Assembly: GCF_000017845.1 (NCBI RefSeq)
Contig: NC_010546.1
Span: 3,450,001-3,482,000, forward strand
DNA length: 32,000 nt
DNA from: Crocosphaera subtropica ATCC 51142
Lineage (GTDB): Bacteria; Cyanobacteriota; Cyanobacteriia; Cyanobacteriales; Microcystaceae
Direction: 5' to 3'
Shown: piece by piece, positions 3,147-15,524 of the stretch
Numbering within the stretch: position 1 is the first letter of the stretch
How the letters are laid out: each line of letters opens with the position of its first letter
Made by a program: the position numbers and the translations under genes
Notes under the pieces: model-generated
What the model saw: only the letters and a program-made list of their open reading frames with translations
Told to the model about the DNA's origin: nothing
The model's database searches: none

Positions 3147-3362
3147 TTAAGCTTCTTTGTTGACAAAGGGCAGTAACGCTAAAAATCTGGCCCGTTTCAC
3201 GGCAGAGGTTAAGGCTCTTTGTTGTTTAGCGGTTAACCCGGTAATGCGTCTCGGTAAGATTTTACCCCGTTCGGTGATAAATTTCCTGAGCAACTCTGTA
3301 TCTTTATAATCAATGGGTTGTTTAGGGGGAATGGGAGATAACCGTTTGCGATAGTAACTCAT
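3147..3362 (-). CDS. rpsR: 30S ribosomal protein S18
   Basis: 71 aa. [49 protein letters not shown] is the canonical S18 core. Confidence 0.97.
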
Positions 3363-3394: not shown

Positions 3395-3589
3395 CTATTT
3401 AATTTCTTTGTGAACCGTGTGGGTATTACAGTGGGGACAGAACTTTTTCAGTTCTATTCTTCCTGTGGTATTACGACGGTTTTTGCTGGTGGTATAGCGG
3501 TTAACCCCAGGCGATCGCTTGTTAGTGTTTGTCCGACACTCGGTACATTCTAGGGTAATAATCAGTCGAACCCCTTTTTTACTGGCCAT
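3395..3589 (-). CDS. rpmG: 50S ribosomal protein L33
   Basis: 64 aa with CTEC...CPHC zinc-ribbon cysteines and an [11 protein letters not shown] motif. It sits directly upstream of rpsR, as in other cyanobacteria. Confidence 0.97.
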
Positions 3590-3702: not shown

Positions 3703-5784
3703 TTAGTTTAGTTCAAATAATTGCGCTTCAGGTAAATTGGGTAATTCTAGTCCTTGTTTTGAGGGTTGAAAATGCCAAATCAACTTAGGGGAAAGGAAAG
3801 AAAGCTCTTCACTATTTTTTTCGCATTTTACATCTAAACACAACAAATAATCAAAACTTTCTGGATTGGATTGCAAAGGATTAGAAAATTGATAATTGGT
3901 TAATTCTGATTGTAAACCAGGATACTTATAGTCTAAGTTTGAATAAGATGAGGCATGAATAGGTACGATTTCAGAATTAGGAAATGCCAGAATATAGTCA
4001 TAATTATCATCATAGTAACTAGCTAATAAAGCAATTTTTGCTTGAGGTTTGATCAAATCTTTGCTTTGTTGGTTAATGGTTTGATAAGCTCTTATTTGAC
4101 CAAAATTTGTGGTTTTCCAAACATTATTTTGGGTCATGTTTCTAGCCACGTTCTCCAGGGATAAATTTCGAGTCAGTTCCCTATTTAAAATCAAAATCCC
4201 TCTATCTTCATTCATTAGGATAGACGAATAAAGCGTAATTATGCAAGTAATTGTAATAACTTTCAACAGAATTTTTGTTTTATCTTGAAGCCATAAACTG
4301 AGAGAATCAAGGGTATAAGCAATGCAGATACCTGAACTAACAAAAAAGATCGAAAAATAACGACCTCTTAAGGGAGACCAAGCAAGTTTATAACTAACGA
4401 TTAAGAAAAAACAAATTAAAATATAACTAACTATTTTAACAAAACGATTGCCCTTAATAGATGTATAGAGAATAGAGGGAATGGATAATAAAAATCCAAA
4501 CCATCCATACCAGCCAATAATTTCTTGAAATTTCCACTCAATTCCAAATTTATAAGGAGAATCTTTTAGAGGATTAAGATAATTATTTAACATTCCTGCA
4601 TCTCCTACTAAGGGGTAAATGACTTTTCTATAAATTTTTTCTAACTCATTAGATGGCTGAATATTGAGAAAACGCTGACTCACTATGTCTGTTGGTTGCA
4701 TTAAATCAATGGATTGAAATAAAAAACGAAATAAATTAGCAACTCCTCCTTTTACGCCATCAGCTTGTTTGAAATAATTAACATAATCAGGGGGACCTGA
4801 GAATCCCCCCCAATAATTATAATTGTAACTATATAACCAAATTTGGCTAAAAATCAACACAGGTACAATCAAAGCTATCCACCAAAACCAATGGTTTAAA
4901 AGAAACTTAAACCAATTGCCAAAAGAATGTTTTTTAAACAATAAATAACCACTAAACACAAGAAAAGGAGCTAAAAATAAAACAAAAGTTAGTTTGATTG
5001 ATAACCCAAAAGCAGATCCTACAACTAAGAGAATAAAATCAATTAAATTAATGTTTTGGTATAATCGATAGAGAATTAAAAAGCAAAAAATACCCACTCC
5101 AGCCAAAGGAAAATCATTACTTAAAGAATTGGATTGAAAAACAACTTGAGGCATGGTAATAATGACTAAAGTAGAGACAAAAGCAATATTTTGTGATGTC
5201 AGCTTTCGACACAAGCTATAAACACCACAACCAACAGATAAATAAATCAAAAAAGGAAAAATGCCCAGTCCATAATCTGTATGAAACCGCAAAAAAGCAT
5301 GGTTTAAAATATTCCAACCAACTGGAAAAATAGCTTGTCTTAAAGTAACAATATTTTCTAAGTATAATGATTTTTCTTGCTGAAATAGTAAGACTCTCGA
5401 AAGATGATAATCCTTAATGTCTGGACCAGTAGGAGGTAAAATGATAGCTTGTAAACCTAAGTAAATGATAGCTATCCCCACAACAGAGCAAGTTATTTTA
5501 TGTTCTTGCCAAAAATTAACTAATCTTCTCCAAAATTGTTTTAGATAATTATTTCGCCTTCTGATAAGAAAAACACTAGCAATGACTAACATTGCCTCAA
5601 AAATGAAAGCCAGTTGAGGAACCCCAATTAAAAAGACAGTTTGATATAAACAAGAGAGAGTTAATAAAGCAACAATAATTCCTGAACAAATGGCTTCTGA
5701 TACCATCATCTTAGGACGATAAAGAAAAACAGTTGCACCAAGACAGAGAATAATAATTTCTAAAAGAACCAATAAGGGAATCAT
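3703..5784 (-). CDS. Large polytopic membrane protein, GT-C-fold (ArnT/PMT, GT39/GT83-like) glycosyltransferase candidate
   Basis: 693 aa. About 480 aa of densely packed hydrophobic helices are followed by a C-terminal soluble domain of about 170 aa. An acidic DIKDYH segment follows the early helices. It is divergent from a GT2 gene. The family call is inference from architecture, not from a search. Confidence 0.55.
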   Translation of the reverse strand: MIPLLVLLEIIILCLGATVFLYRPKMMVSEAICSGIIVALLTLSCLYQTVFLIGVPQLAFIFEAMLVIASVFLIRRRNNYLKQFWRRLVNFWQEHKITCSVVGIAIIYLGLQAIILPPTGPDIKDYHLSRVLLFQQEKSLYLENIVTLRQAIFPVGWNILNHAFLRFHTDYGLGIFPFLIYLSVGCGVYSLCRKLTSQNIAFVSTLVIITMPQVVFQSNSLSNDFPLAGVGIFCFLILYRLYQNINLIDFILLVVGSAFGLSIKLTFVLFLAPFLVFSGYLLFKKHSFGNWFKFLLNHWFWWIALIVPVLIFSQIWLYSYNYNYWGGFSGPPDYVNYFKQADGVKGGVANLFRFLFQSIDLMQPTDIVSQRFLNIQPSNELEKIYRKVIYPLVGDAGMLNNYLNPLKDSPYKFGIEWKFQEIIGWYGWFGFLLSIPSILYTSIKGNRFVKIVSYILICFFLIVSYKLAWSPLRGRYFSIFFVSSGICIAYTLDSLSLWLQDKTKILLKVITITCIITLYSSILMNEDRGILILNRELTRNLSLENVARNMTQNNVWKTTNFGQIRAYQTINQQSKDLIKPQAKIALLASYYDDNYDYILAFPNSEIVPIHASSYSNLDYKYPGLQSELTNYQFSNPLQSNPESFDYLLCLDVKCEKNSEELSFLSPKLIWHFQPSKQGLELPNLPEAQLFELN

Positions 5785-5939
5785 AATCTGTAAAATTGAT
5801 TGATATGAAGTAAGGATATCCCATAGAAGTTAATTTTGGGATCTTTAAAACCATTAAAATTTTCTTGACGAATTTGATAGGTCATAGTACCATCCAACAT
5901 AAATATAATTACCCCTAATATATAAAAGCTGCATTATAA

Positions 5940-6926
5940 ATGAGCAAATTAATTATTCAGATTCCCTGTTACAATGAGGAATCATCTTTGCCTATCACCC
6001 TTTCTGAATTGCCTCGTCAAGTTCCAGGGGTGGATGAAGTTGAATGGCTAATTATTAACGATGGTAGTCAAGATAGAACGGTTGAGATAGCCAAAGAATG
6101 GCAGGTAGACCATATTGTTAATTTTGAATATAATCAAGGCTTAGCCAAGGCTTTTATGGCAGGCTTAGAGGCTAGTCTAAAAGCAGGTGCTGATATTATT
6201 GTTAACACCGATGCAGATAATCAATATTGCGCTGAGGATATTCCTAAGCTTATTGAACCAATTTTAAACAAACGGGCTGAGATCGTGGTCGGAGCTAGAC
6301 CTATCGCCAATATTCGCCACTTTTCGCCCCTAAAGAAGCTCTTACAAAAATTAGGAAGTTGGGTGGTACGAGTTGCAAGTAATACTAATGTACCTGATGC
6401 CCCCAGTGGTTTTCGGGCAATGAGTCGCAATGCGGCCATGAAATTAAACGTTTTTAATGAATATACTTATACCTTAGAAACTATTATTCAAGCAGGGCGC
6501 AAAGATATTGTAATTACTTCGGTTCCTATCCGAACCAATGGTTACTTAAGAGCGTCTCGTTTAATAAAAAGTATTCCCCTGTATATTCAGCGTTCAATTG
6601 TTACGATTGTTCGCATTTTTATGGCTTATAAGCCTTTACAATTTTTTGCTTATATAGGAGCGGTTCCTTTTTCTTTGGGCAGTATTTTATTAATTCGGTG
6701 GTTAATATTATTTATAGTTGAAAATAGCATGAGAACTCGTCTACCTAGTTTAATTTTGGGGGCAATTTTAATTATTGTGGGGGTACAATTTTGGATCTTG
6801 GGATTAGTGGCTGATTTATTAGCAGTTAACCGAAAACTGTTAGAAGATATTCAGTTAAGATTACGACGCAACGAATACGAAAAATTTTCCCAAAACCCCT
6901 TAAACGATGTTTCTAAAATTCAATAA
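5940..6926 (+). CDS. Family 2 glycosyltransferase, polyprenyl-phosphate sugar synthase type (DPM1/GtrB/ArnC-like)
   Basis: 328 aa. GT2 signatures are IQIPCYNEE, INDGSQDRT and DADNQY (DxD). Two C-terminal TM helices (LILFIVEN..., LILGAILIIVGVQFWILGLVADLL) are typical of GtrB/ArnC-type enzymes. Confidence 0.88.
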   Translation: MSKLIIQIPCYNEESSLPITLSELPRQVPGVDEVEWLIINDGSQDRTVEIAKEWQVDHIVNFEYNQGLAKAFMAGLEASLKAGADIIVNTDADNQYCAEDIPKLIEPILNKRAEIVVGARPIANIRHFSPLKKLLQKLGSWVVRVASNTNVPDAPSGFRAMSRNAAMKLNVFNEYTYTLETIIQAGRKDIVITSVPIRTNGYLRASRLIKSIPLYIQRSIVTIVRIFMAYKPLQFFAYIGAVPFSLGSILLIRWLILFIVENSMRTRLPSLILGAILIIVGVQFWILGLVADLLAVNRKLLEDIQLRLRRNEYEKFSQNPLNDVSKIQ

Positions 6927-6938
6927 ATAAAATCAAAA

Positions 6939-8351
6939 ATGAGCTATTGGCAAAAATTTCAACAAACAGTTATTCACCCCAGAAATTGCACTCACTGCGG
7001 TGCTTGTGTCGGTCTAAATCCTGACTTATTATCTTTTAAAGAAACGGCTTCAGGCCCCTTACCCTTCCCCAAAAAAATCCTAACCCCCCAAGAAGACGAA
7101 CAGTTAAAATTAGCTTGGGCAGTGTGTTCGGGAAGAGGAACCCCTTACCCCGAATTATTTGAATATTTAGATTATTCTACCAAAAATTGGCTATTAGGAG
7201 AATATAAAGGGGTTTATACTGGATTTGCTAGTGATCCCGCCATTCGTCGCCGAGGAGCATCTGGAGGGGTGATTAGTCGGGTGCTGATTCATTTACTCGA
7301 AACGGGGGAAATAGACGGGGCGGTGGTGTTACGTCAAGGATTAGATGACCCTGAAAAAGCCACCCCTATTATTGCAACCACAGCAGAGGAAATCCTCGAA
7401 GCAGCGCAGAGTGTTTATGCTGTTACTCCTATGTTAACGATTTTGCCAGAAATCGAGGAATTTGAGGGAAATTTGGCTTTTGTGGGACTGCCAGAACAGA
7501 TTAGTGTCTTGAGGATGTTACAAGCATCGGGCAACGAGGCAGCCAAAAAAGTGGTCTTTGTGGCTGGTCCGTACACAGGAACCAATATGTATTTAGGGGC
7601 ATTACGGGCATTTTTGCGCTCTCAAAGGGTATCGGACAAGGTAGCTATCAAGAAGGTGCAATGGCGGGCAGGAGAATGGCCAGGGTACTTACAAATCGAT
7701 ACAGCAGACGATCGCTCGTTTAAGGCACAGAAATTTTACTATAATTACTTAATTCCTTTCTATATTTCCCGTAACTGTCAAATTATTCCTGATTTTAGCA
7801 ATGAATGTACGGATTTATCAGTGGGAGATGCTTGGTCGCCTCAATTTGAGTCCCAAGGGGGCGGCCATTCCGTAATTGTTGCCCGTAGTGACAAGGCGGT
7901 TAAAGTCTTAACAGAGATGGAAATCAACCAGAAAGTGACTTTAGAGCCGATAGAAGTGGAAAAAGCCCTAGCAATGCACGGCCATATGTTGGATTTTAAG
8001 AAAAGAGGAACCTTTATTCGCTTAGACGTTCAGAAAAAATTAGGGCAACCCATACCTGAGTTTGGTTATCGTCCGGTTTCGATCGCTTTAAGCCGTCGTT
8101 TAGTAGAAATTGTCATTACAGGGTCGTTTATGATAGGAAGGCTGTCTATTGCTCGCTGGATCGTCTCAAAAATTCCCATTGGTATCGTTGGACCCGCTTT
8201 TAACTGGTTGCGTCAAACCTGGAAAGGGTTATCCAAACCCACCAAACGCAAAGGGTTGGCCGAAGTGGAATTTGTACGGATCGAACAAGGCGATCGCTGG
8301 TCTGAAATTACCCAGTTTGCTCAACCTGAAGCCATGACATCCCAGGAGTAA
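6939..8351 (+). CDS. FrhB/FdhB-like protein (coenzyme F420 hydrogenase/dehydrogenase beta-subunit family; Fe-S flavoprotein)
   Basis: 470 aa. It has an N-terminal [12 protein letters not shown] cysteine motif, a [11 protein letters not shown] flavin-site-like motif, and later cysteines ([14 protein letters not shown]). Family call made from motif memory. Confidence 0.75.
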
Positions 8352-8356
8352 GGACA

Positions 8357-9946
8357 ATGGACTTAACAGCAACCTTTCAACGCTACGCCGATCATCAAGT
8401 CGCCCGCATCCTAACCCAAATGGATCGAGATCCCCAGTCTCCTACCTTTGGCTGTTTTGATCGCAACTATTGGCATTATAAGATTCGGGACTATCCTTCC
8501 TCGATTTTGCAACAAGGGGCTTTTACCTTAGAAGCGATCGCCAATGATACCATTCCCTCAGTCTCCGGCATTCCCGATGAATGGCGTATCGGGGCGTTAA
8601 ATGCTTTGGCCCGACAAATAGATAGTCAAGGGCGTGTGGACGAATATTATCCCTACGAAGCCAGTTATCCAGCGGCCGCTTTTGGGTTATATGCAGTCAC
8701 CCGTATCCTTTGGCAATGGGAAAAAACAGCCCCTCATCTAGCTAAAGAAGTAAACCGAGAACCCTTAGAATGGTTGGCCCATCATTTAGCCAGTCGCCTC
8801 GAAACCGAAGCCAGCAACCAACACGCTGCGGGAGTGACAGGGTTAGCTTTTGCTAAGAGATTAAATCTCCTTTCTAGCCCGAAAATAGCCCTAGAAGAGC
8901 AAACAGAGCAACTTTTTAATAATCAACATTCTGAAGGTTGGTTTAAGGAATATGGTGGGCCAGACTTTGGTTATTTGACGGTGACGTTGGATGTGTTAGT
9001 GGATTACTATGAAATAACCCAAGATGAAAGGGCGATCGCAGCTATAGATCGGGCGGTGGAATTTTTAGCCCGTCTGGTGGGGGCAGATTATAAGTTACCT
9101 TCTACTTTAAATAGTCGCAATACGGATTATGTAGTGCCTTACGGGTTAGTGAAAACAGCACAACGTAACCCCTTGGCTGCTTGGTTGGTAGAAGTGTTAT
9201 TTTCTAGTCTGGATCAGCCGTCTCATTTTGTTTGGGCAACGGATGATCGCTATCATTGTCATTATCTGTTTGCCAGCATTGTCCGTGCAATTCCCCATCT
9301 TAAAGCCATGCAACCCAGTCAAACCCCCAAGTTTTGGGGTGAGTCGGTATGGTTAGAAGGCTGTGGGTATCAGGTTTATTGGTCCAAGGAGCAACGCTGG
9401 AATGCTTATGTAGCAGCTAGAAAAGGGGGTTTGGTGAGAATTCATCAAAAAGGAGAATTAGACCCCGTAGTGGACTATGGATGGCGTATTGAGAAGGAAA
9501 ACACCCTATGGACAACCAACTGGTGGACTCAAGACTGGCAAATTGAGCAAAAAGGTGATCGGATTATTATTCGAGGTAACTGTCAAAAAACCCAGTATCA
9601 TGTACCCAGTCCCCCGAAACATTTAGTCTTAAGAATTTTGGCGTTTTTATTAAGAGAAAAAGTGATTCCTTTGCTCAAGAGAGTGATGATTTTTCGCCCA
9701 GGGGTAACGGACGGTCCAAAATTTGAGCGTGTGATTTCTTTTGATAGTAATGGCGTAAAAATTAAAGAGCATTTAGCTGCGTTTCCAGGCGCAATGGTCA
9801 TTCCCAGTCCTCGACAAAATCTCCGTCATGTTGCGAGTGCAGATAGTTTTAGTCGAGAGGAATGGTTGGTTTCTTTGATGGGAGATCGTGATTATTCTTT
9901 AGAGAAAGATATTGTTATTGACAATCAATGGTTAGCTAATCAATGA
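8357..9946 (+). CDS. Hypothetical soluble protein, 529 aa, helix-rich N-terminal two-thirds
   Basis: Long ORF with GGAG upstream, 5 nt after the preceding stop. It contains three perfect HIP1 sites. No signal peptide or TM segment is seen. I recognise no family. Confidence 0.8.
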   Translation: MDLTATFQRYADHQVARILTQMDRDPQSPTFGCFDRNYWHYKIRDYPSSILQQGAFTLEAIANDTIPSVSGIPDEWRIGALNALARQIDSQGRVDEYYPYEASYPAAAFGLYAVTRILWQWEKTAPHLAKEVNREPLEWLAHHLASRLETEASNQHAAGVTGLAFAKRLNLLSSPKIALEEQTEQLFNNQHSEGWFKEYGGPDFGYLTVTLDVLVDYYEITQDERAIAAIDRAVEFLARLVGADYKLPSTLNSRNTDYVVPYGLVKTAQRNPLAAWLVEVLFSSLDQPSHFVWATDDRYHCHYLFASIVRAIPHLKAMQPSQTPKFWGESVWLEGCGYQVYWSKEQRWNAYVAARKGGLVRIHQKGELDPVVDYGWRIEKENTLWTTNWWTQDWQIEQKGDRIIIRGNCQKTQYHVPSPPKHLVLRILAFLLREKVIPLLKRVMIFRPGVTDGPKFERVISFDSNGVKIKEHLAAFPGAMVIPSPRQNLRHVASADSFSREEWLVSLMGDRDYSLEKDIVIDNQWLANQ

Positions 9947-10458
9947 TATTTAATGAAAAATTTATGAAAATCACCTTATCAGAGCAAAACTATTTAAAAT
10001 TTACGAAGTTTTTTATTTTAGGTTTAGTTATTATTTTTGTTATTTCTCCTGGAAAATATCAATTTTGGCCATTTATTTATTGGGAACTTTTTGATGCAGG
10101 AAATCCTTATATTCCTAAAGAAAGGAAGCTAATTGAATTTCGAGTTTTAGATACAAATCAAAATTGGCATATTATACGTCCAATGGACTTATATAGCATC
10201 GATGATGATGTATCAGATCAACCGGGAAGCTTAGTCATAGCCAGAAAAATTGTTCAGAAAAATGGTGAATTTACAGACATTTATCACTCTTATTTGATCA
10301 AACATCTAGAAAGAAAATTGAATTTTAAAATTGAGAAAATCGAAGCTTATAGATCAACATGGAAATTGGATTATAATCAATACCCTCCTTTGGATATTAA
10401 TCAACCAGATAAAATGGAAAAAATTGATAGTTTTCAAGCTAGTGATTATATAAATTAG
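9943..10458 (+). CDS. Hypothetical membrane-anchored protein (one N-terminal TM helix)
   Basis: 171 aa. Its start overlaps the upstream stop (ATGA). The FFILGLVIIFVISP helix is followed by a hydrophilic domain. An alternative start exists at M8. Confidence 0.65.
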   Translation: MIFNEKFMKITLSEQNYLKFTKFFILGLVIIFVISPGKYQFWPFIYWELFDAGNPYIPKERKLIEFRVLDTNQNWHIIRPMDLYSIDDDVSDQPGSLVIARKIVQKNGEFTDIYHSYLIKHLERKLNFKIEKIEAYRSTWKLDYNQYPPLDINQPDKMEKIDSFQASDYIN

Positions 10459-10464
10459 TAACCA

Positions 10465-11616
10465 ATGATTAAAGTTTTAAAACAATTAGAGAAAAATTAC
10501 ACTCAATGGTTAAGTTCCCCTGCACCCAATGCAGCAGGAAGAATTGGATTGTTTCGTATTCTTTATAGTATTTTTAGTTTATGGTTATGTAGTTATCTTC
10601 ATTATGGAGAAATGGGTTTAGTTCCTGCTATTCAATGGAAACCTATTCTATTATTATCTTGGTTAGACTCTCCTCCCTATCAATTAATTCCTATTTTTGA
10701 ATCTTTGCTAGTTTCATCGCTAATTTTACTATTGGTTGGTTATCAAACCCGTTTAGCAACTCTGTTTGTTTTTGTTTTAGGTTCAGGTTTAACAGCGATT
10801 CGTTTTAGTTTATTTATGGGGGATGCACTATTTATGGTTCAGTATTTTTATATCCCTTTATTTATGTTATTTTCTCATTGGGGAGATACTTATTCTATTG
10901 ATTCAATTTTAGCTAAAAGACAAGGTAAAATGACACCGCAACCGCAAAATTCTTCCTGGCGATATTTTTGGTCATCACGGGGTTTATTAGTGGTTTATAC
11001 TTTACTAATGTTCTCATCAGCATTTTTCAAAATTATAAAAAAAGAGTGGATATTTAATCCCAATTTTGTTGGTTATTTGATAATTGATAAAACTTTTAAT
11101 AGTTATCTAAATAATGGGTTTCCTGTTAATCCTATTTCAATTTTCATTGCTCATCACCGCTCTTTATATATTCCCATGCAGTATTTTGCATTAATTTTTG
11201 AAACTTCAGCAATATTGATCCTTTTCATTCCTATTGTTCGCTTTTTATTTTTTCGTCTTATTCCTATTTTTCACTTTTCTAATACCTTTTTAATGGGAAT
11301 TCCTTTTGCAACCGTTATTGGCATCTATCTTGCTTTCCCTGACTGGCAAAGCATTTATGAACGCTTTTATCCTAAATTTTTTCGATTTAATTGGTTAAAT
11401 AAATTGTCATCACCAATTTTAATTATTAGTTCAATCTCTATAGCTGCGATTGTTGGAATGACTTGGAATATATTACCCGTTTTTCGTTATATATTTAGTT
11501 GGTTTGGACTGGTAAAATTTCATACAATTTGGTTGATTATTTTTCCTTTTGCTTTAATTTGGGCAATAAGATCAATATCTGATAAAACTCAGATACTAAT
11601 ATTCAAAAAACAATAA
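10465..11616 (+). CDS. HTTM-domain (vitamin K-dependent gamma-carboxylase-like) integral membrane protein
   Basis: 383 aa and polytopic. The N-terminal GLFRILYSIFSLW resembles the HTTM A-x-FRI-x-FG motif. It is followed by LLLVGYQTRLATLFVFVL and an SIDSIL segment in the positions expected for HTTM. Assignment made by eye only. Confidence 0.55.
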   Translation: MIKVLKQLEKNYTQWLSSPAPNAAGRIGLFRILYSIFSLWLCSYLHYGEMGLVPAIQWKPILLLSWLDSPPYQLIPIFESLLVSSLILLLVGYQTRLATLFVFVLGSGLTAIRFSLFMGDALFMVQYFYIPLFMLFSHWGDTYSIDSILAKRQGKMTPQPQNSSWRYFWSSRGLLVVYTLLMFSSAFFKIIKKEWIFNPNFVGYLIIDKTFNSYLNNGFPVNPISIFIAHHRSLYIPMQYFALIFETSAILILFIPIVRFLFFRLIPIFHFSNTFLMGIPFATVIGIYLAFPDWQSIYERFYPKFFRFNWLNKLSSPILIISSISIAAIVGMTWNILPVFRYIFSWFGLVKFHTIWLIIFPFALIWAIRSISDKTQILIFKKQ

Positions 11617-11638
11617 TTATATTATTTTTTTCTTTAAC

Positions 11639-12586
11639 ATGAAACGATTTATTTCCCTTGCTATTAGTACCGCTATTCTTGTTATTCTCTATTCTAAAAT
11701 TAATTTTCAGCAATTACTAAAAGTTTTTCGTGATTGTAATTTAGCTTGGTTAAGTATTAGTTTAACGATGGTTATTCCCATTACATTAATCACAGCTTGG
11801 CGATTACAACAATTAATGCCGAAAAACAGTAATTTAGGATTATTAGAAGCGAATCGTTTGATTTTAGGTTCCAGTGTTTTAAATATGATTTTACCCTCTA
11901 AGATGGGGGAAATTGCTAAAGCGTATTTCTTACGAGATAGGGGACATTTAAGTGGTTCTTTATCTATTTCTTTAGTCATTTTTGAGAGAATATTTGATTT
12001 ACTCTCTTTACTATTTTATTGTGTGCTTGGTTTAATTATTTATCCAAATAAAGATGAGTTTTTTCTCGTCATGACTATTGGTATCTTGATCAGTTTAAGC
12101 GTAGGATTATTATTAATTTGCTCCCAGAATTTTGCTTTATTTTTCTTAAAATCATTATCAAAAATATCTCCAAACTCAATCAAGCTTAAAATCCAAACTC
12201 TTGAATCTTCTTGGCAAGAAATGCACCAATATTTTTGGAGCCATCCTAACCAGTTAATAACAATCACATCAACTTCAATATTTTTATGGTTTTTACATTT
12301 ATTACAAATTTGGTTCTTTATTTTAGCCCTTAATGCTTGGGTTCCTTTTGTCACTAATCTTGCTCTTTCTTCTTTAGCAATTTTAGCAGGATTACTACCG
12401 TTAACCTTTGCTGGAGTAGGAACAAGAGATGCTGCTTTAGTGTATCTTTATCAACCTTATTTTTCTGCTAGTATTGGGGCTGCATTAGGAATTCTTTGTA
12501 CGTCTCGTTATTTTCTTCCTGCGCTGGTTGGACTTCCTTTTCTCAATCAAATGATGAGTGCTGTTCGTCAGTTTAAGAGGTCTTAA
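11639..12586 (+). CDS. Flippase-like membrane protein (LPG_synthase_TM / UPF0104 family)
   Basis: 315 aa with about 8 TM helices. Motifs PSKMGEIAKAYFL and LLPLTFAGVGTRDAAL are typical of this family, which commonly accompanies or is fused to GT2 polyprenyl-phosphate glycosyltransferases. Confidence 0.72.
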   Translation: MKRFISLAISTAILVILYSKINFQQLLKVFRDCNLAWLSISLTMVIPITLITAWRLQQLMPKNSNLGLLEANRLILGSSVLNMILPSKMGEIAKAYFLRDRGHLSGSLSISLVIFERIFDLLSLLFYCVLGLIIYPNKDEFFLVMTIGILISLSVGLLLICSQNFALFFLKSLSKISPNSIKLKIQTLESSWQEMHQYFWSHPNQLITITSTSIFLWFLHLLQIWFFILALNAWVPFVTNLALSSLAILAGLLPLTFAGVGTRDAALVYLYQPYFSASIGAALGILCTSRYFLPALVGLPFLNQMMSAVRQFKRS

Positions 12587-12649: not shown

Positions 12650-13111
12650 TTAATTTTTACGCAACAAAGCAAACCATAAACCACCAACGCCAGCAGTAAT
12701 TAATAAACTGTGAATGGGAGACATAGGAGTGGAACTATAATGTAAATCTTGTTTCAATTCATAACTAATATTTTCGTAATCTACTCCATCTTCAGTCACA
12801 GGAACAATAATCACTTCTCCATGACCTTCATCAATAATTTGGACTTCCCAGTCCCCAGGAATAGAGGTATCAGGAAGGAAAGAAAAACGGCCTTCTTCAT
12901 CCGTTCTCGACTCTAACCAAGGTTCATCAAAATTATTAGGTGCATAAACATAAACTTCAGCATTTTCAGCAACTTCATCCGTGCTATAGGTCGTTTGAAA
13001 TTCTAATTCCTCGTTCATTAAATAATTAGTGAACATGGTGTGTGCTAAAGTTTCAGATGGCACTCCCACGACACCCAATAAAAATGGTAAAGCCAAAATT
13101 AGTTTTTTCAT
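12650..13111 (-). CDS. Secreted transthyretin/CarboxypepD_reg-like domain protein with a C-terminal TM anchor
   Basis: The track ORF 12650..13171 starts at a TTG. ATG 13111 is preceded by GAGGAG and gives MKKLILALPFLLGVVGVPSETLA|HTMF, a clear signal peptide. EEGRFSFLPDTSIPGDWEV is a CarboxypepD_reg-like strand pattern. The C-terminal helix is LLITAGVGGLWFALL. Confidence 0.72.
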   Translation of the reverse strand: MKKLILALPFLLGVVGVPSETLAHTMFTNYLMNEELEFQTTYSTDEVAENAEVYVYAPNNFDEPWLESRTDEEGRFSFLPDTSIPGDWEVQIIDEGHGEVIIVPVTEDGVDYENISYELKQDLHYSSTPMSPIHSLLITAGVGGLWFALLRKN

Positions 13112-13154
13112 CTGACTAGGACTCCTCAGAACGATTGAAATAAAGTTAAAGTTG

Positions 13155-13181
13155 ATTATAACAAGTCTCAAAGCGTATCAA
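13155..13181 (-). promoter_or_regulatory. Candidate sigma70-type promoter for the 12650..13111 gene
   Basis: On the minus strand, TTGATA (13181-13176) and TATAAT (13160-13155) are separated by 15 nt, about 45 nt upstream of the ATG. The spacing is short of the 17-nt optimum. Confidence 0.3.
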
Positions 13182-13422: not shown

Positions 13423-13857
13423 TTAACCAGCAACGCCTAAAATGTCTTGAGCGTGGGTATCTGTTTTCACTTTTTCGTCAACATAGCTAATTTTGCCCTC
13501 TCCATTGATAATGTAGGTGACACGCTTAGAATAACCACCACCCTCAACATCATAAGCTTTGGTTAACTTACCATCTTTATCCACTAACAATTGAAAAGGA
13601 AGACCATACTTTTCTTTAAACGCTTTATGGGAAGCTTGGTCATCCATACTAACCCCAAACACAACCATATCTTTATCCTGGTATTGTTGATAATTATCAC
13701 GGAAGCTTTGGGCTTCTTTGGTGCAACCAGGGGTATCATCTTTAGGATAGAAATATAAAACGACGACTTTACCCTTATAATCCGATAAAGAGACGGTATT
13801 ACCCTCATCATCAACGGTAGTAAAGTCCGGTGCAACGGTTCCAACAGCTAAAGCCAT
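13423..13857 (-). CDS. prxQ: Thioredoxin-dependent peroxiredoxin, BCP/PrxQ type
   Basis: 144 aa. FYPKDDTPGCTKEA is the peroxidatic-Cys motif of the BCP/PrxQ family. Confidence 0.95.
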   Translation of the reverse strand: MALAVGTVAPDFTTVDDEGNTVSLSDYKGKVVVLYFYPKDDTPGCTKEAQSFRDNYQQYQDKDMVVFGVSMDDQASHKAFKEKYGLPFQLLVDKDGKLTKAYDVEGGGYSKRVTYIINGEGKISYVDEKVKTDTHAQDILGVAG

Positions 13858-14039: not shown

Positions 14040-15524
14040 ATGAAAGCCATGATGGTAGTGGGAACCACTTCCCACGCCGGAAAATCCTTTATCACCACCG
14101 CAATTTGTCGTATTTTAGCCCGTCGGGGTTGGCATATAACCCCCTTCAAAGGACAAAATATGGCGTTGAATGCCTATGTTACCACCACCGGGGGAGAAAT
14201 TGGTTATGCTCAAGCGGTGCAAGCTTGGGCTGCAGGGATTAATCCCAGAGTAGAAATGAATCCTATTCTCTTGAAACCTCAGGGTAATATGACTTCACAG
14301 GTTATTCTAGGGGGCAAAGCAGCAGGAATTACGACGGCAACAAACTATTACGAACAGTATTTTGATAAGGGTTGGAATATGATTGTTCACTCCCTAGAAC
14401 GTTTGGCCGTCGAATACGATTTTGTGGTCTGTGAAGGTGCCGGAAGTCCAGCAGAAATCAATCTCAAACATCGAGATTTAACCAATATGAGAGTGGCGAA
14501 ATATCTCAATGCACCAACTCTATTAGTTGTTGATATTGATCGTGGTGGGGCCTTTGCTCATGTGGTAGGAACCCTACAATTATTAGATGAATCCGAACGG
14601 GCTTTAATAAAAGGCATTGTGATTAATAAGTTTCGAGGACAGCGATCGCTGTTAGATTCGGGCATTGAATGGTTAGAAAATTACACAGGAATTCCCGTGT
14701 TAGGAGTGATTCCTTGGCGAGAAATTTCTTTTTCTGCAGAAGATTCTTTAGATTTATTAGAACGACGTAGAAAAGAACAAAAAGAGATTAATGTAACGAT
14801 TTTACGATTGCCTCATATTGCTAATTTTACCGATTTTGAACCGTTGGATGCAGAAAAAACCGTATCGATTAGCTATTTAGACTTAAATGAGCCATTGGGT
14901 TATCCTGATGCAGTAATTATTCCCGGATCGAAAACCACGATTAATGATTTAATCGCCCTACATGAAAGTGGGATAGCCAAACAATTACAAGATTATGTGG
15001 CAGCCGGAGGGATTGTTTTAGGCATTTGTGGTGGATTTCAAATGTTAGGAGAAATGGTGTTTGATCCCGATCAATTAGAAGGTAATAATGTTTCTTATGC
15101 AGGACTAAACCTGTTACCGATTGAAACAGTGATCACCCCTGAAAAAATTGTCCGTCAACGTCACACCTGTTCAGTTTATCCTTATCCTGGATTTCCTATT
15201 ACGGGGTACGAAATTCATCAAGGGGTTACCCGTTCATCGAAAAGTCCCCATCAACGGATAAAAACAACCAATCATCCATTATTTGAAGATGGTAGTTTAG
15301 GCATTGTTAATGATAATCAGTCAGTTTGGGGCTGTTATTTACATGGAATTTTTGATAATGGGGCATGGCGAAGAAATTGGTTAAATTACCTCAGAAATCG
15401 TCGAGGTTTACCTTCTTTACCCACTGGAATTGCTAATTATCGAGAGCAACGGGAGACAGTTTTAAACCAGTTAGCTGATCTGGTAGAACAATATATAGAC
15501 TTAACACCCTTGCTAAATAACTAA
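14040..15524 (+). CDS. cobQ: Cobyric acid synthase
   Basis: 494 aa. It has an N-terminal P-loop-like GTTSHAGKSFITTAICR and a C-terminal GATase-1 domain with ICGGFQMLG and CYLHGIF. Confidence 0.95.
   Translation: MKAMMVVGTTSHAGKSFITTAICRILARRGWHITPFKGQNMALNAYVTTTGGEIGYAQAVQAWAAGINPRVEMNPILLKPQGNMTSQVILGGKAAGITTATNYYEQYFDKGWNMIVHSLERLAVEYDFVVCEGAGSPAEINLKHRDLTNMRVAKYLNAPTLLVVDIDRGGAFAHVVGTLQLLDESERALIKGIVINKFRGQRSLLDSGIEWLENYTGIPVLGVIPWREISFSAEDSLDLLERRRKEQKEINVTILRLPHIANFTDFEPLDAEKTVSISYLDLNEPLGYPDAVIIPGSKTTINDLIALHESGIAKQLQDYVAAGGIVLGICGGFQMLGEMVFDPDQLEGNNVSYAGLNLLPIETVITPEKIVRQRHTCSVYPYPGFPITGYEIHQGVTRSSKSPHQRIKTTNHPLFEDGSLGIVNDNQSVWGCYLHGIFDNGAWRRNWLNYLRNRRGLPSLPTGIANYREQRETVLNQLADLVEQYIDLTPLLNN

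Follow-up and report, generated by a model that had tools for sequence, protein, structure and literature searches.

A conserved glycosyltransferase, flavoprotein and U529 module in a putative lipid-linked glycosylation locus of Crocosphaera subtropica ATCC 51142

A divergent cluster of seven genes was analyzed computationally in a 32,000-nucleotide (nt) stretch of the Crocosphaera subtropica ATCC 51142 genome (the window). The cluster encodes a GT2 glycosyltransferase of 328 amino acids (aa), a 470-aa FrhB-like flavoprotein, a 529-aa soluble protein of an unnamed family (U529), a 171-aa and a 383-aa membrane protein, a 315-aa flippase-like LPG_synthase_TM protein and, on the opposite strand, a 693-aa membrane protein with a predicted GT-C fold. 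The seven genes are not one unit. The conserved unit comprises GT2, a flavoreductase and U529, to which a flippase-like protein and an exchangeable GT-C are added, and the 171-aa and 383-aa genes form a separate two-gene cassette inserted in the locus. We lean towards viewing the locus as an extended three-component system of the Gtr/Arn type for extracytoplasmic glycosylation, in which the lipid-linked sugar would be tailored reductively before flipping.

The conserved module across phyla and the inserted cassette

One genome per species was scanned, which yielded 211 relatives of U529, and 79 loci were kept; the window proteins were compared with their open reading frames (ORFs) by phmmer. 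Loci were regarded as well flanked if their sequence extended 4 kb or more to each side of U529, and these comprised 52 genome loci and 35 divergent loci from metagenomes. A GT2 gene was present near U529 in 46 of the 52 genome loci, and an FrhB-like gene was located directly upstream of the 529-aa gene in 44. A nitroreductase-family flavoprotein stood in for FrhB in some loci, two of them among the 52. LPG_synthase_TM was found in 23/52 and GtrA, the most frequent extra neighbor, in 17/52, with one or the other in 40/52; GtrA occupied the place of LPG_synthase_TM in orthologous loci. A large polytopic or GT-C protein, variable in sequence, was encoded near U529 in about 55 of the 79 loci. The 171-aa and 383-aa genes occurred in 0/52, and both were also absent from all 79 other genome loci carrying the 529-aa family.

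The GT2, FrhB-like and U529 module was conserved at about 50–60% identity in at least 10 phyla, and its genes often overlapped by 4 nt. In our preferred reading it is a donor module shared by horizontal transfer. Beyond the cyanobacteria, the hosts were Acidobacteriota, Verrucomicrobiota, Bacteroidales, Proteobacteria, Lentisphaerae and others. The arrangements observed in Acidobacteriota, Verrucomicrobiota and one Methylophagaceae genome were GT2, FrhB, U529, GT-C; GT-C, GT2, FrhB, U529, LPG_synthase_TM; and GT-C, a 198-aa gene, GT2, U529, nitroreductase, GtrA. Chance juxtaposition was ruled out by the recurrence of the GT2/FrhB/529 arrangement in 44–46 of the 52 well-flanked loci and in many phyla. 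An earlier note on this DNA, made from the sequence alone, had proposed looking for the co-occurrence of all seven genes across cyanobacteria. That was the wrong unit, as the cassette was found in none of the 79 loci and the module spans many phyla. The four genes that the note had grouped as extras to a Gtr/Arn-type system also fell into two pairs: the conserved core of the module is formed by the FrhB-like and 529-aa genes, and the 171-aa and HTTM-like (383-aa) genes are the independent cassette.

In the divergent branch of the U529 family, GT2 was found in 31 of the 35 well-flanked metagenome loci, nitroreductase in 14 and FrhB in 6. Other recurrent neighbors in this branch were PMT- and STT3-type GT-Cs, methyltransferases, short-chain dehydrogenase/reductase (SDR) epimerases or dehydratases, and GT4 glycosyltransferases. 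B12-binding radical S-adenosylmethionine (SAM) enzymes were encoded beside divergent members in 22 loci (among L093–L172). Amidotransferases of the Asn-synthase type were encoded beside them in 10 loci, and directly downstream in L142, L153 and L156.

In the window the cassette (9943–11616) was placed exactly between the U529 and LPG_synthase_TM genes, and the same insertion and order were found in the close relative L087. It was regarded as an insertion because LPG_synthase_TM directly follows the 529-aa gene in other cyanobacterial loci, at offsets of +1568 to +1640 nt from the U529 start. Only 30 homologues of the 383-aa protein were found, mostly cyanobacterial. A 157–167-aa homologue of the 171-aa protein (53 and 36% identity to the window protein) was encoded directly upstream of a 383-aa homologue in a Leptolyngbyaceae metagenome-assembled genome (MAG), in Adonisia turfae and in two further assemblies, and none of the GT2, FrhB and U529 genes was near these stand-alone pairs. 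In the Leptolyngbyaceae MAG, the pair and the GT2/FrhB/U529 cluster were located on different contigs.

Neither cassette protein had a Pfam or NCBIfam match, even at E<=10. Hydropathy indicated a single transmembrane segment at residues 17–35 of the 171-aa protein and about 8 hydrophobic segments in the 383-aa protein. The description of the latter as HTTM-like was borne out in part: it is polytopic and carries the UniRef label "HTTM domain-containing," but it had no Pfam match of its own, and among the 21 members of its family HTTM was matched in only two (best 1.2e-4) and DoxD in four. It is at best a distant relative of the DoxD/HTTM clan. An SdpA/SdpB-like identity was also considered for the pair, and no NCBIfam match supported it.

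The scaffold L089 carried an HTTM-like gene, a 693-type GT-C (59% identity), GT2, a methyltransferase and a U529 paralogue with 27% identity. In L089 (1805–4020, plus strand) this paralogue had a SAM methyltransferase, not a flavoprotein, as its translationally coupled partner. Because L089 again combines an HTTM-like gene with a 693-type GT-C, a looser functional tie between the cassette and GT-Cs of this type is possible. Large secreted-type DUF4114 proteins adjoined the stand-alone pair in two cyanobacterial assemblies (L005, 9245–11974, and L088, 9267–12050, both minus strand), and another adjoined the 693-type GT-C in Geminocystis NIES-3709 (L090, 5939–8311, minus strand). Such DUF4114 proteins may connect the cassette with the 693-type GT-C, either as an acceptor or as a functional partner. 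A DUF4114 protein was rejected as a local acceptor, there being no homologue in the window.

Protein families, predicted folds and layout of the locus

The 328-aa protein matched Glycos_transf_2 (Pfam, 87 bits) and contained two C-terminal hydrophobic helices at about residues 234–260 and 264–290, in agreement with the GT2 with two C-terminal transmembrane helices described earlier. Partial NCBIfam matches were obtained to AglJ, PpgS, PgfS, ArnC and the Dol-P-hexose transferase, and no equivalog reached its cut-off. The ArnC score was 52.7 against a cut-off of 529, by which measure the window GT2 is not an Arn orthologue. Its alignment with the archaeal DPMS (5mlz, 7.6e-13) covered the catalytic domain only (residues 3–197), and those with ArnC (9hwj/9bhc, residues 3–293) and Synechocystis GtrB sll0501 (5eke, 4–295) were full length. 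The D91/D93 motif was invariant in 65 orthologues. The 328-aa protein is thus predicted to be a membrane-anchored GT2 that makes a polyprenyl-phosphate monosaccharide, because of the full-length ArnC/GtrB alignment, the catalytic-domain alignment with DPMS and the two C-terminal transmembrane helices.

Both FrhB_FdhB_N (84.5 bits) and FrhB_FdhB_C (96.4 bits) were above the gathering score in the 470-aa protein, and its matches in the Protein Data Bank (PDB) were 8riu_B (7.4e-24, residues 9–339) and FrhB 9r51_B (7.8e-18, residues 86–373), so the FrhB/FdhB-like call stood. The plant 7-hydroxymethyl chlorophyll a reductase (HCAR, 5dqr) was a weak match (E 1.1e-3). The protein had been called Cys-rich; it has only six Cys in total, and four of them (C17/C20/C23/C63) form a conserved cluster motif. 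An N-terminal extension bears a Cys motif. Among 62 orthologues C63 was invariant and C17/C20/C23 were at least 90% conserved. By the criterion of the family, these residues are predicted ligands of a [4Fe-4S] cluster. Hydropathy detected no transmembrane segment. A C-terminal extension of about 100 aa, absent from canonical FrhB, contained basic and aromatic residues that were invariant in the same 62 orthologues (R406...R437), and this conserved basic and hydrophobic tail fits work at a membrane surface. NCBIfam FrhB equivalogs scored 74–91 bits, far under their cut-offs of 269–331. F420 is, to our knowledge, generally missing from the host phyla, which makes ferredoxin or NAD(P)H the more likely partner.

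For the nitroreductase that replaces FrhB in some loci, the nearest NCBIfam relatives were BluB, the FbiB C-terminal domain and NfsA-type reductases; a SagB/McbC-type dehydrogenase was ruled out by these best similarities. The 8-vinyl reductase BciB and HCAR catalyze ferredoxin-driven reduction of a C=C bond or removal of a hydroxyl, and the FbiB C-domain likewise belongs among enzymes that reduce a C=C bond or remove a hydroxyl.

U529, the signature protein of the module, had no Pfam match (even at E<=10), no NCBIfam match and no PDB match by sequence. A first search returned 398 homologues with 48–64% identity in cyanobacteria, Acidobacteriota and Verrucomicrobiota, all labeled hypothetical. 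An exhaustive profile search gave 1,780 clusters (50% identity) at E<=1e-3 and 796 at E<=1e-30. A solved-structure relative was not found with the single sequence, and the profile gave noise only (ribosomal S14, E 0.15). The AlphaFold (AF2) model of the 529-aa protein (pLDDT 88.4, pTM 0.92) comprised an alpha-helical (alpha/alpha)6 toroid at residues 1–317 and a beta-sandwich at 330–526. In Foldseek it matched polysaccharide lyases of families PL33, PL8 (chondroitin, hyaluronate and xanthan lyases), PL15 and PL17 (alginate lyases) and an exo-heparinase, with E 7e-7 to 1e-4, TM-scores of 0.41–0.53 and 9–12% identity.

About 60 residues were invariant across 79 U529 orthologues, and six clusters of them lay in loops or first turns preceding helices 52, 104, 153, 204, 262 and 297. 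In (alpha/alpha)6 enzymes the catalytic cleft is usually formed by loops and turns at such positions. The protein therefore looks like an enzyme, given the confident model of lyase architecture and the invariant polar residues clustered at the predicted cleft. On conservation, N154/Q155, Y206, R254/N255 and Y299/H302 are candidate catalytic residues only. No transmembrane segment was detected by hydropathy and no signal-peptide-like N-terminus was seen, so U529 is predicted to be a cytoplasmic enzyme, with a fixed substrate. Residues 33–48 (CFDRNYWHYKIRDYPS) were among the most conserved of the family: Y41, D45 and S48 were invariant, and D35, R36, W39, H40 and R44 were at least 90% conserved. 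Residues 39–46 were the only low-confidence part of the model (pLDDT <50). The stretch 33–48 may be a mobile lid, or a loop that binds a partner or the membrane.

The 315-aa protein matched LPG_synthase_TM (PF03706) with 126.6 bits over profile positions 2–302 of 302, above the gathering score, and the NCBIfam "flippase-like domain" TIGR00374 with 71.4 bits against a cut-off of 43.2; its assignment to LPG_synthase_TM (UPF0104) was confirmed. No small flippase of the GtrA or ArnE/F type was present in the window, where the 315-aa protein is the candidate. In L144 (8577–11441, plus strand), and also in L098, L100 and L116, a 950-aa fusion of LPG_synthase_TM, a PMT_2 GT-C and a polysaccharide deacetylase was encoded directly downstream of the U529 homologue. 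As a Rosetta-stone case, the fusion ties the flippase-like domain to GT-C transfer, and its deacetylase part hints that some systems handle an N-acetylated sugar.

The 693-aa protein contained about 12 hydrophobic segments by hydropathy and matched PMT_2 with 30.1 bits, just over the Pfam cut-off of 26.1. Its AF2 model, built from 18 homologues, had a pLDDT of 83.8 and a pTM of 0.89. All best Foldseek matches of the model were GT-C proteins, with ArnT 5ezm at the top (E 4.8e-5, TM-score 0.54 on target) and ALG12, STT3, ALG9, AglB, EmbB, Pmt4 and AftA among the others. The PMT_2 and Foldseek matches agreed with the earlier GT-C assignment, and the protein is modeled with a GT-C fold. It is a narrow, lineage-specific cyanobacterial type with only 20 homologues, whose source names were "GT39 family" and "ArnT family." In the alignment of this type, Y126, L128, R130 and Q136 were near-invariant, and D224, R166 and K264 were invariant; the Asp of an "NWDS"-like stretch was a majority residue only. 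The 693-type GT-C was rejected as an orthologue of the membrane proteins of other clusters, as BLAST against the 596-aa Leptolyngbyaceae protein (L007) at the matching position gave E 0.63.

The window was assigned to strain ATCC 51142 by exact matches of its proteins. The seven ORFs, their strands, the 155-bp spacer between the minus-strand ORF and the six plus-strand ORFs, and the gaps of 12, 5, -4, 6 and 22 nt between the latter were all reproduced exactly from the ORF list (Table 1). Sigma-70-like matches in the spacer were weak (5865–5893, plus strand; 5809–5780, minus strand) and not above shuffled expectation, and the promoter and terminator pattern counts of the window were likewise not above it. 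No Rfam family or tRNA was detected in the window. The cluster was bounded on the left by rpmG and rpsR, located between the GT-C gene and an RNase II gene (983–2995) on the same strand, and on the right by a 173-aa ORF, a peroxiredoxin gene and cobQ, none of which recurred with the module in other loci. The G+C content was 0.28–0.31 at 4001–6000 and 10001–12000 (GT-C gene, cassette and LPG_synthase_TM gene) and 0.45–0.47 at 7001–9000 (FrhB-like and 529-aa genes). This contrast may reflect the codon content of membrane proteins or a different origin of the conserved soluble pair. Searches of the literature with cce_ locus tags gave unrelated matches only.

Table 1. Features of the cluster and its flanks, with positions in the window
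Feature	Position	Strand	Basis
rpsR (S18, 71 aa)	3147–3362	-	name read from translation, no family search behind it
rpmG (L33, 64 aa)	3395–3589	-	name read from translation, no family search behind it
GT-C fold glycosyltransferase (PMT_2/ArnT-like), 693 aa; presumed periplasmic transferase	3703–5784	-	Pfam and predicted fold
Divergent intergenic region, AT-rich, 155 bp; presumed promoter region	5785–5939		coordinates and sequence
Putative GT2 polyprenyl-phosphate glycosyltransferase (DPMS/ArnC/GtrB type), 328 aa	5940–6926	+	Pfam, PDB matches, hydropathy
FrhB/FdhB-family iron–sulfur (FeS) flavoprotein, 470 aa	6939–8351	+	Pfam, PDB matches, conserved Cys
U529, soluble, unnamed family, lyase-like predicted architecture, 529 aa	8357–9946	+	AF2 model and Foldseek
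Single-pass membrane protein, first cassette gene, 171 aa	9943–10458	+	hydropathy, neighborhoods; 4-nt overlap with the 529-aa gene
Polytopic membrane protein (cce_3355), second cassette gene, 383 aa	10465–11616	+	Pfam matches of homologues, hydropathy
LPG_synthase_TM (UPF0104) flippase-like membrane protein, 315 aa	11639–12586	+	Pfam and NCBIfam
173-aa ORF, convergent, weak NikL-like energy-coupling factor (ECF) transporter match (33 bits against cut-off 100)	12650–13171	-	NCBIfam
AhpC/TSA peroxiredoxin	13423–13857	-	family match
Cobyric acid synthase CobQ	14040–15524	+	family match

Proposed pathway and alternatives

In the pathway that we favor, GT2 would load a sugar from a common or housekeeping nucleotide sugar onto polyprenyl phosphate at the cytoplasmic face. 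U529 and the FrhB-like FeS flavoprotein, which is probably fed by ferredoxin or NAD(P)H, would tailor the lipid-linked sugar on that face. LPG_synthase_TM (or GtrA) would flip the tailored donor across the membrane, and the lineage-specific 693-aa GT-C would transfer the sugar to a periplasmic or envelope acceptor. The 171-aa and HTTM/DoxD-like genes would be co-transcribed here yet stand outside the conserved system. The Gtr/Arn-style logic of GT2, flippase-like protein and GT-C, which the earlier note had put forward, was supported by the ArnC and GtrB alignments, the predicted GT-C fold, the exchange of LPG_synthase_TM and GtrA, and the fusion protein. The redox-dependent extra step of the same note is plausible for the FrhB-like and 529-aa proteins, which are conserved with GT2; the 171-aa and HTTM-like proteins, which are not part of the conserved system, are unlikely to share in it.

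The stage of tailoring, its redox direction and chemistry, the sugar and the acceptor are what we infer. No nucleotide-sugar-modifying gene recurred in window-type loci; a housekeeping nucleotide sugar was therefore proposed as the source for GT2, and tailoring after lipid attachment would fit. A fold of the lyase type points to abstraction of a proton adjacent to a carboxylate, which makes such a step likely in U529. Two unrelated flavoprotein folds are interchangeable at the FrhB position, which points to a simple two-electron redox step. Reduction is the likely direction because of this interchange and because C=C reduction or hydroxyl removal is what the nearest functional analogues catalyze. 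With low confidence, the 529-aa enzyme might abstract a proton and catalyze an elimination (dehydration) or isomerization, followed by two-electron reduction by the flavin, with net deoxygenation or saturation of the sugar. A 4,5-elimination on a uronic acid followed by ene-reduction would be one example, and uronic acids are weakly suggested by the Asn-synthase-type amidotransferases encoded next to divergent members.

A broader proposal is offered tentatively. U529 and the flavoprotein might constitute a new, widespread class of enzymes that remodel a sugar on polyprenyl phosphate. A lyase fold would serve as a biosynthetic dehydratase or isomerase, and a flavin would then carry out the reduction. 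Diverse GT-Cs would install the resulting deoxy sugar, or sugar reduced in some other way, on different acceptors; such a product has so far gone unrecognized in bacterial envelope glycans.

Several points weigh against the proposed pathway. The likeness of U529 to the lyases, at the TM-scores and identities given above, is only architectural in the model. A flavoprotein gene was not adjacent to U529 in 6/52 genome loci and 15/35 divergent loci, and since some family members lack this neighbor, the U529 step has no strict need of it and must itself be independent of redox. The flavoprotein could also oxidize rather than reduce, and the substrate of the tailoring pair could instead be a nucleotide sugar or a cytoplasmic acceptor intermediate. 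The uronic-acid idea is a weak one, drawn by analogy from the fold and from amidotransferases next to divergent members. The GT-C gene is divergently transcribed, and 693-type homologues accompany other GT2 genes elsewhere. The 693-aa GT-C is tied to the donor of the module by adjacency only, although this adjacency, that is, the divergent GT2/GT-C pair of the window, is repeated in L089.

One of these points can be stated as an explanation of its own, namely that the FrhB-like and 529-aa proteins make or modify a soluble precursor (a nucleotide sugar or sugar phosphate) used by GT2, or tailor a cytoplasmic acceptor intermediate. Both proteins are soluble and without a transmembrane segment, the gene order GT2-FrhB-529 is uninformative on the order of the reactions, and SDR epimerases or dehydratases and a GFO/IDH/MocA oxidoreductase adjoin divergent family members. 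However, window-type loci contained no recurring nucleotide-sugar enzyme, the constant partner is a membrane GT2 rather than a nucleotidyltransferase, and the FrhB-like protein carries the conserved basic and hydrophobic tail. Moreover, we know of no toroid plus beta-sandwich enzyme that acts on nucleotide sugars. We consider a soluble precursor unlikely, and tailoring on the lipid carrier is preferred.

A single dedicated system of all seven genes is more doubtful still. In it, a step such as quinone-linked redox would be added to the same glycosylation pathway by the 171-aa and HTTM-like proteins. The genes are tightly coupled in the window (a 4-nt overlap, then gaps of 6 and 22 nt), their order is identical in L087, and L089 again joins an HTTM-like gene, a 693-type GT-C, GT2 and a 529-aa paralogue. 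The DoxD/HTTM clan is also associated with quinones. Against this stand the absence of the cassette from the 79 genome loci with the 529-aa family, the occurrence of the stand-alone pair in at least four unrelated contexts, the separate contigs of the pair and the GT2/FrhB/529 cluster in the Leptolyngbyaceae MAG, and the LPG_synthase_TM gene directly after the 529-aa gene in other cyanobacteria.

The best structural matches of the 529-aa protein were depolymerizing lyases, and many loci of the divergent subfamily were without an adjacent reductase. The protein could accordingly be imagined as a true polysaccharide lyase or hydrolase, or as a non-catalytic glycan-binding scaffold, that trims, recycles or chaperones a polymer. 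This is quite improbable for a protein that has neither a signal peptide nor a transmembrane segment and matches no lyase family in sequence. Its gene is closely linked, in many cases by translational coupling, to those of a cytoplasmic FeS flavoprotein and a polyprenyl-phosphate GT2, and its approximately 60 invariant polar residues speak for an enzyme that acts on a single, fixed small substrate. That GT2 and LPG_synthase_TM make and flip an end-product glycolipid (an HpnI/HpnL-like hopanoid or MprF-like lipid) rather than a donor for a GT-C is very improbable: LPG_synthase_TM proteins do pair with GT2 genes in hopanoid loci, but the weak HpnL match reached 28.5 bits against a cut-off of 195.65, GT2 matched neither HpnI nor HpnB, and its alignments with ArnC and GtrB were full length. 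In many phyla the module also comes with GT-C genes, and in some of these LPG_synthase_TM is fused to the GT-C.

Comparison with known systems

The overall architecture is familiar, and the tailoring pair and the U529 family are undescribed. No NCBIfam equivalog reached its cut-off and a full-text literature search gave no description of this gene combination, so an already characterized exopolysaccharide or O-antigen locus was rejected. The same search yielded no paper in which lipid-linked systems with GtrA or GT-C were reported alongside an FrhB-like or nitroreductase-like gene, in agreement with the statement of the earlier note that no system of this composition was known.

Three-component systems of GT2, flippase and GT-C are a major route for decorating lipopolysaccharide, teichoic acids, arabinogalactan and proteins after export. 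Few ways of diversifying their lipid-linked donors are known (ArnD, DprE1/E2 and the pentofuranose epimerases), and the present analysis indicates a further tailoring pair, conserved at 50–60% identity from cyanobacteria to Acidobacteriota. The U529 family contains about 1,800 sequence clusters, without a Pfam model or a characterized member. Its chemistry, once assigned, would annotate thousands of "hypothetical" genes and possibly reveal a new envelope sugar. FrhB-like and nitroreductase-like genes recur, so far without explanation, in the polysaccharide loci of organisms that lack F420, and these too would then gain a function. The recognition of the HTTM-like pair as a separable cassette changes the genetic dissection of the locus.

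A GT2 polyprenyl-phosphate sugar synthase, followed by a small flippase and a GT-C, is the logic of GtrABC in O-antigen glucosylation and of ArnC/ArnEF/ArnT in lipid A modification. The locus shares with GtrA/GtrB/GtrC and with the Gram-positive CsbB/GtcA/YfhO a GT2 with C-terminal transmembrane helices, a GT-C and a flippase-like protein, and GtrA itself takes part in about a third of the orthologous loci (17/52). In contrast to these systems, the locus uses LPG_synthase_TM, not GtrA, and has two conserved soluble enzymes between synthase and flippase, for which there is no counterpart in them. In the Arn pathway, the ArnD deformylase carries out a tailoring step on the undecaprenyl-phosphate sugar prior to flipping, and the window GT2 and GT-C have ArnC and ArnT, respectively, as their closest or nearly closest structural relatives. 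The locus differs in having no ArnA, ArnB or ArnD homologue; its tailoring candidates are an FeS flavoprotein and a lyase-fold protein.

DprE1 is a flavoenzyme that acts on a polyprenyl-phosphate sugar, and DprE1/DprE2 tailor a lipid-linked monosaccharide before GT-C transfer. Auxiliary epimerases diversify the lipid-linked monosaccharide donor in the three-component pentofuranose systems of Citrobacter youngae O1/O2 (PMC11127046). As proposed for the locus, a lipid-linked donor is altered, flipped and used by a GT-C both in those systems and in the mycobacterial conversion of decaprenylphosphoryl ribose (DPR) to the arabinose form (DPA) with Emb/Aft GT-Cs. Unlike the locus studied here, they employ a polyprenyl phosphoribose synthase dependent on phosphoribosyl pyrophosphate (PRPP) rather than GT2, a MATE protein as flippase, and epimerases unrelated to FrhB or the 529-aa family.

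At the level of single proteins, U529 resembles PL8, PL15, PL17, PL33 and heparinase II/III in its two-domain toroid and beta-sandwich model and in its conserved polar residues at the toroid cleft. It differs from polysaccharide lyases in belonging to none of their sequence families, even by profile, in its low TM-scores, and in its predicted cytoplasmic location and biosynthetic context. The FrhB-like protein is comparable to BciB and HCAR as an FrhB-type flavin adenine dinucleotide (FAD)/FeS protein in an organism without F420-dependent metabolism, with HCAR as a detectable though weak PDB relative; its proposed substrate class is a glycan, whereas theirs is a tetrapyrrole. In the synthesis of CDP-3,6-dideoxyhexoses, the dehydratase E1 and the FeS flavoprotein reductase E3 deoxygenate a sugar. 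E1 is a pyridoxamine phosphate (PMP) enzyme unrelated to the 529-aa fold, but the elimination and subsequent flavin reduction proposed for U529 and its flavoprotein are alike in concept to E1/E3, and likewise to MurA/MurB.

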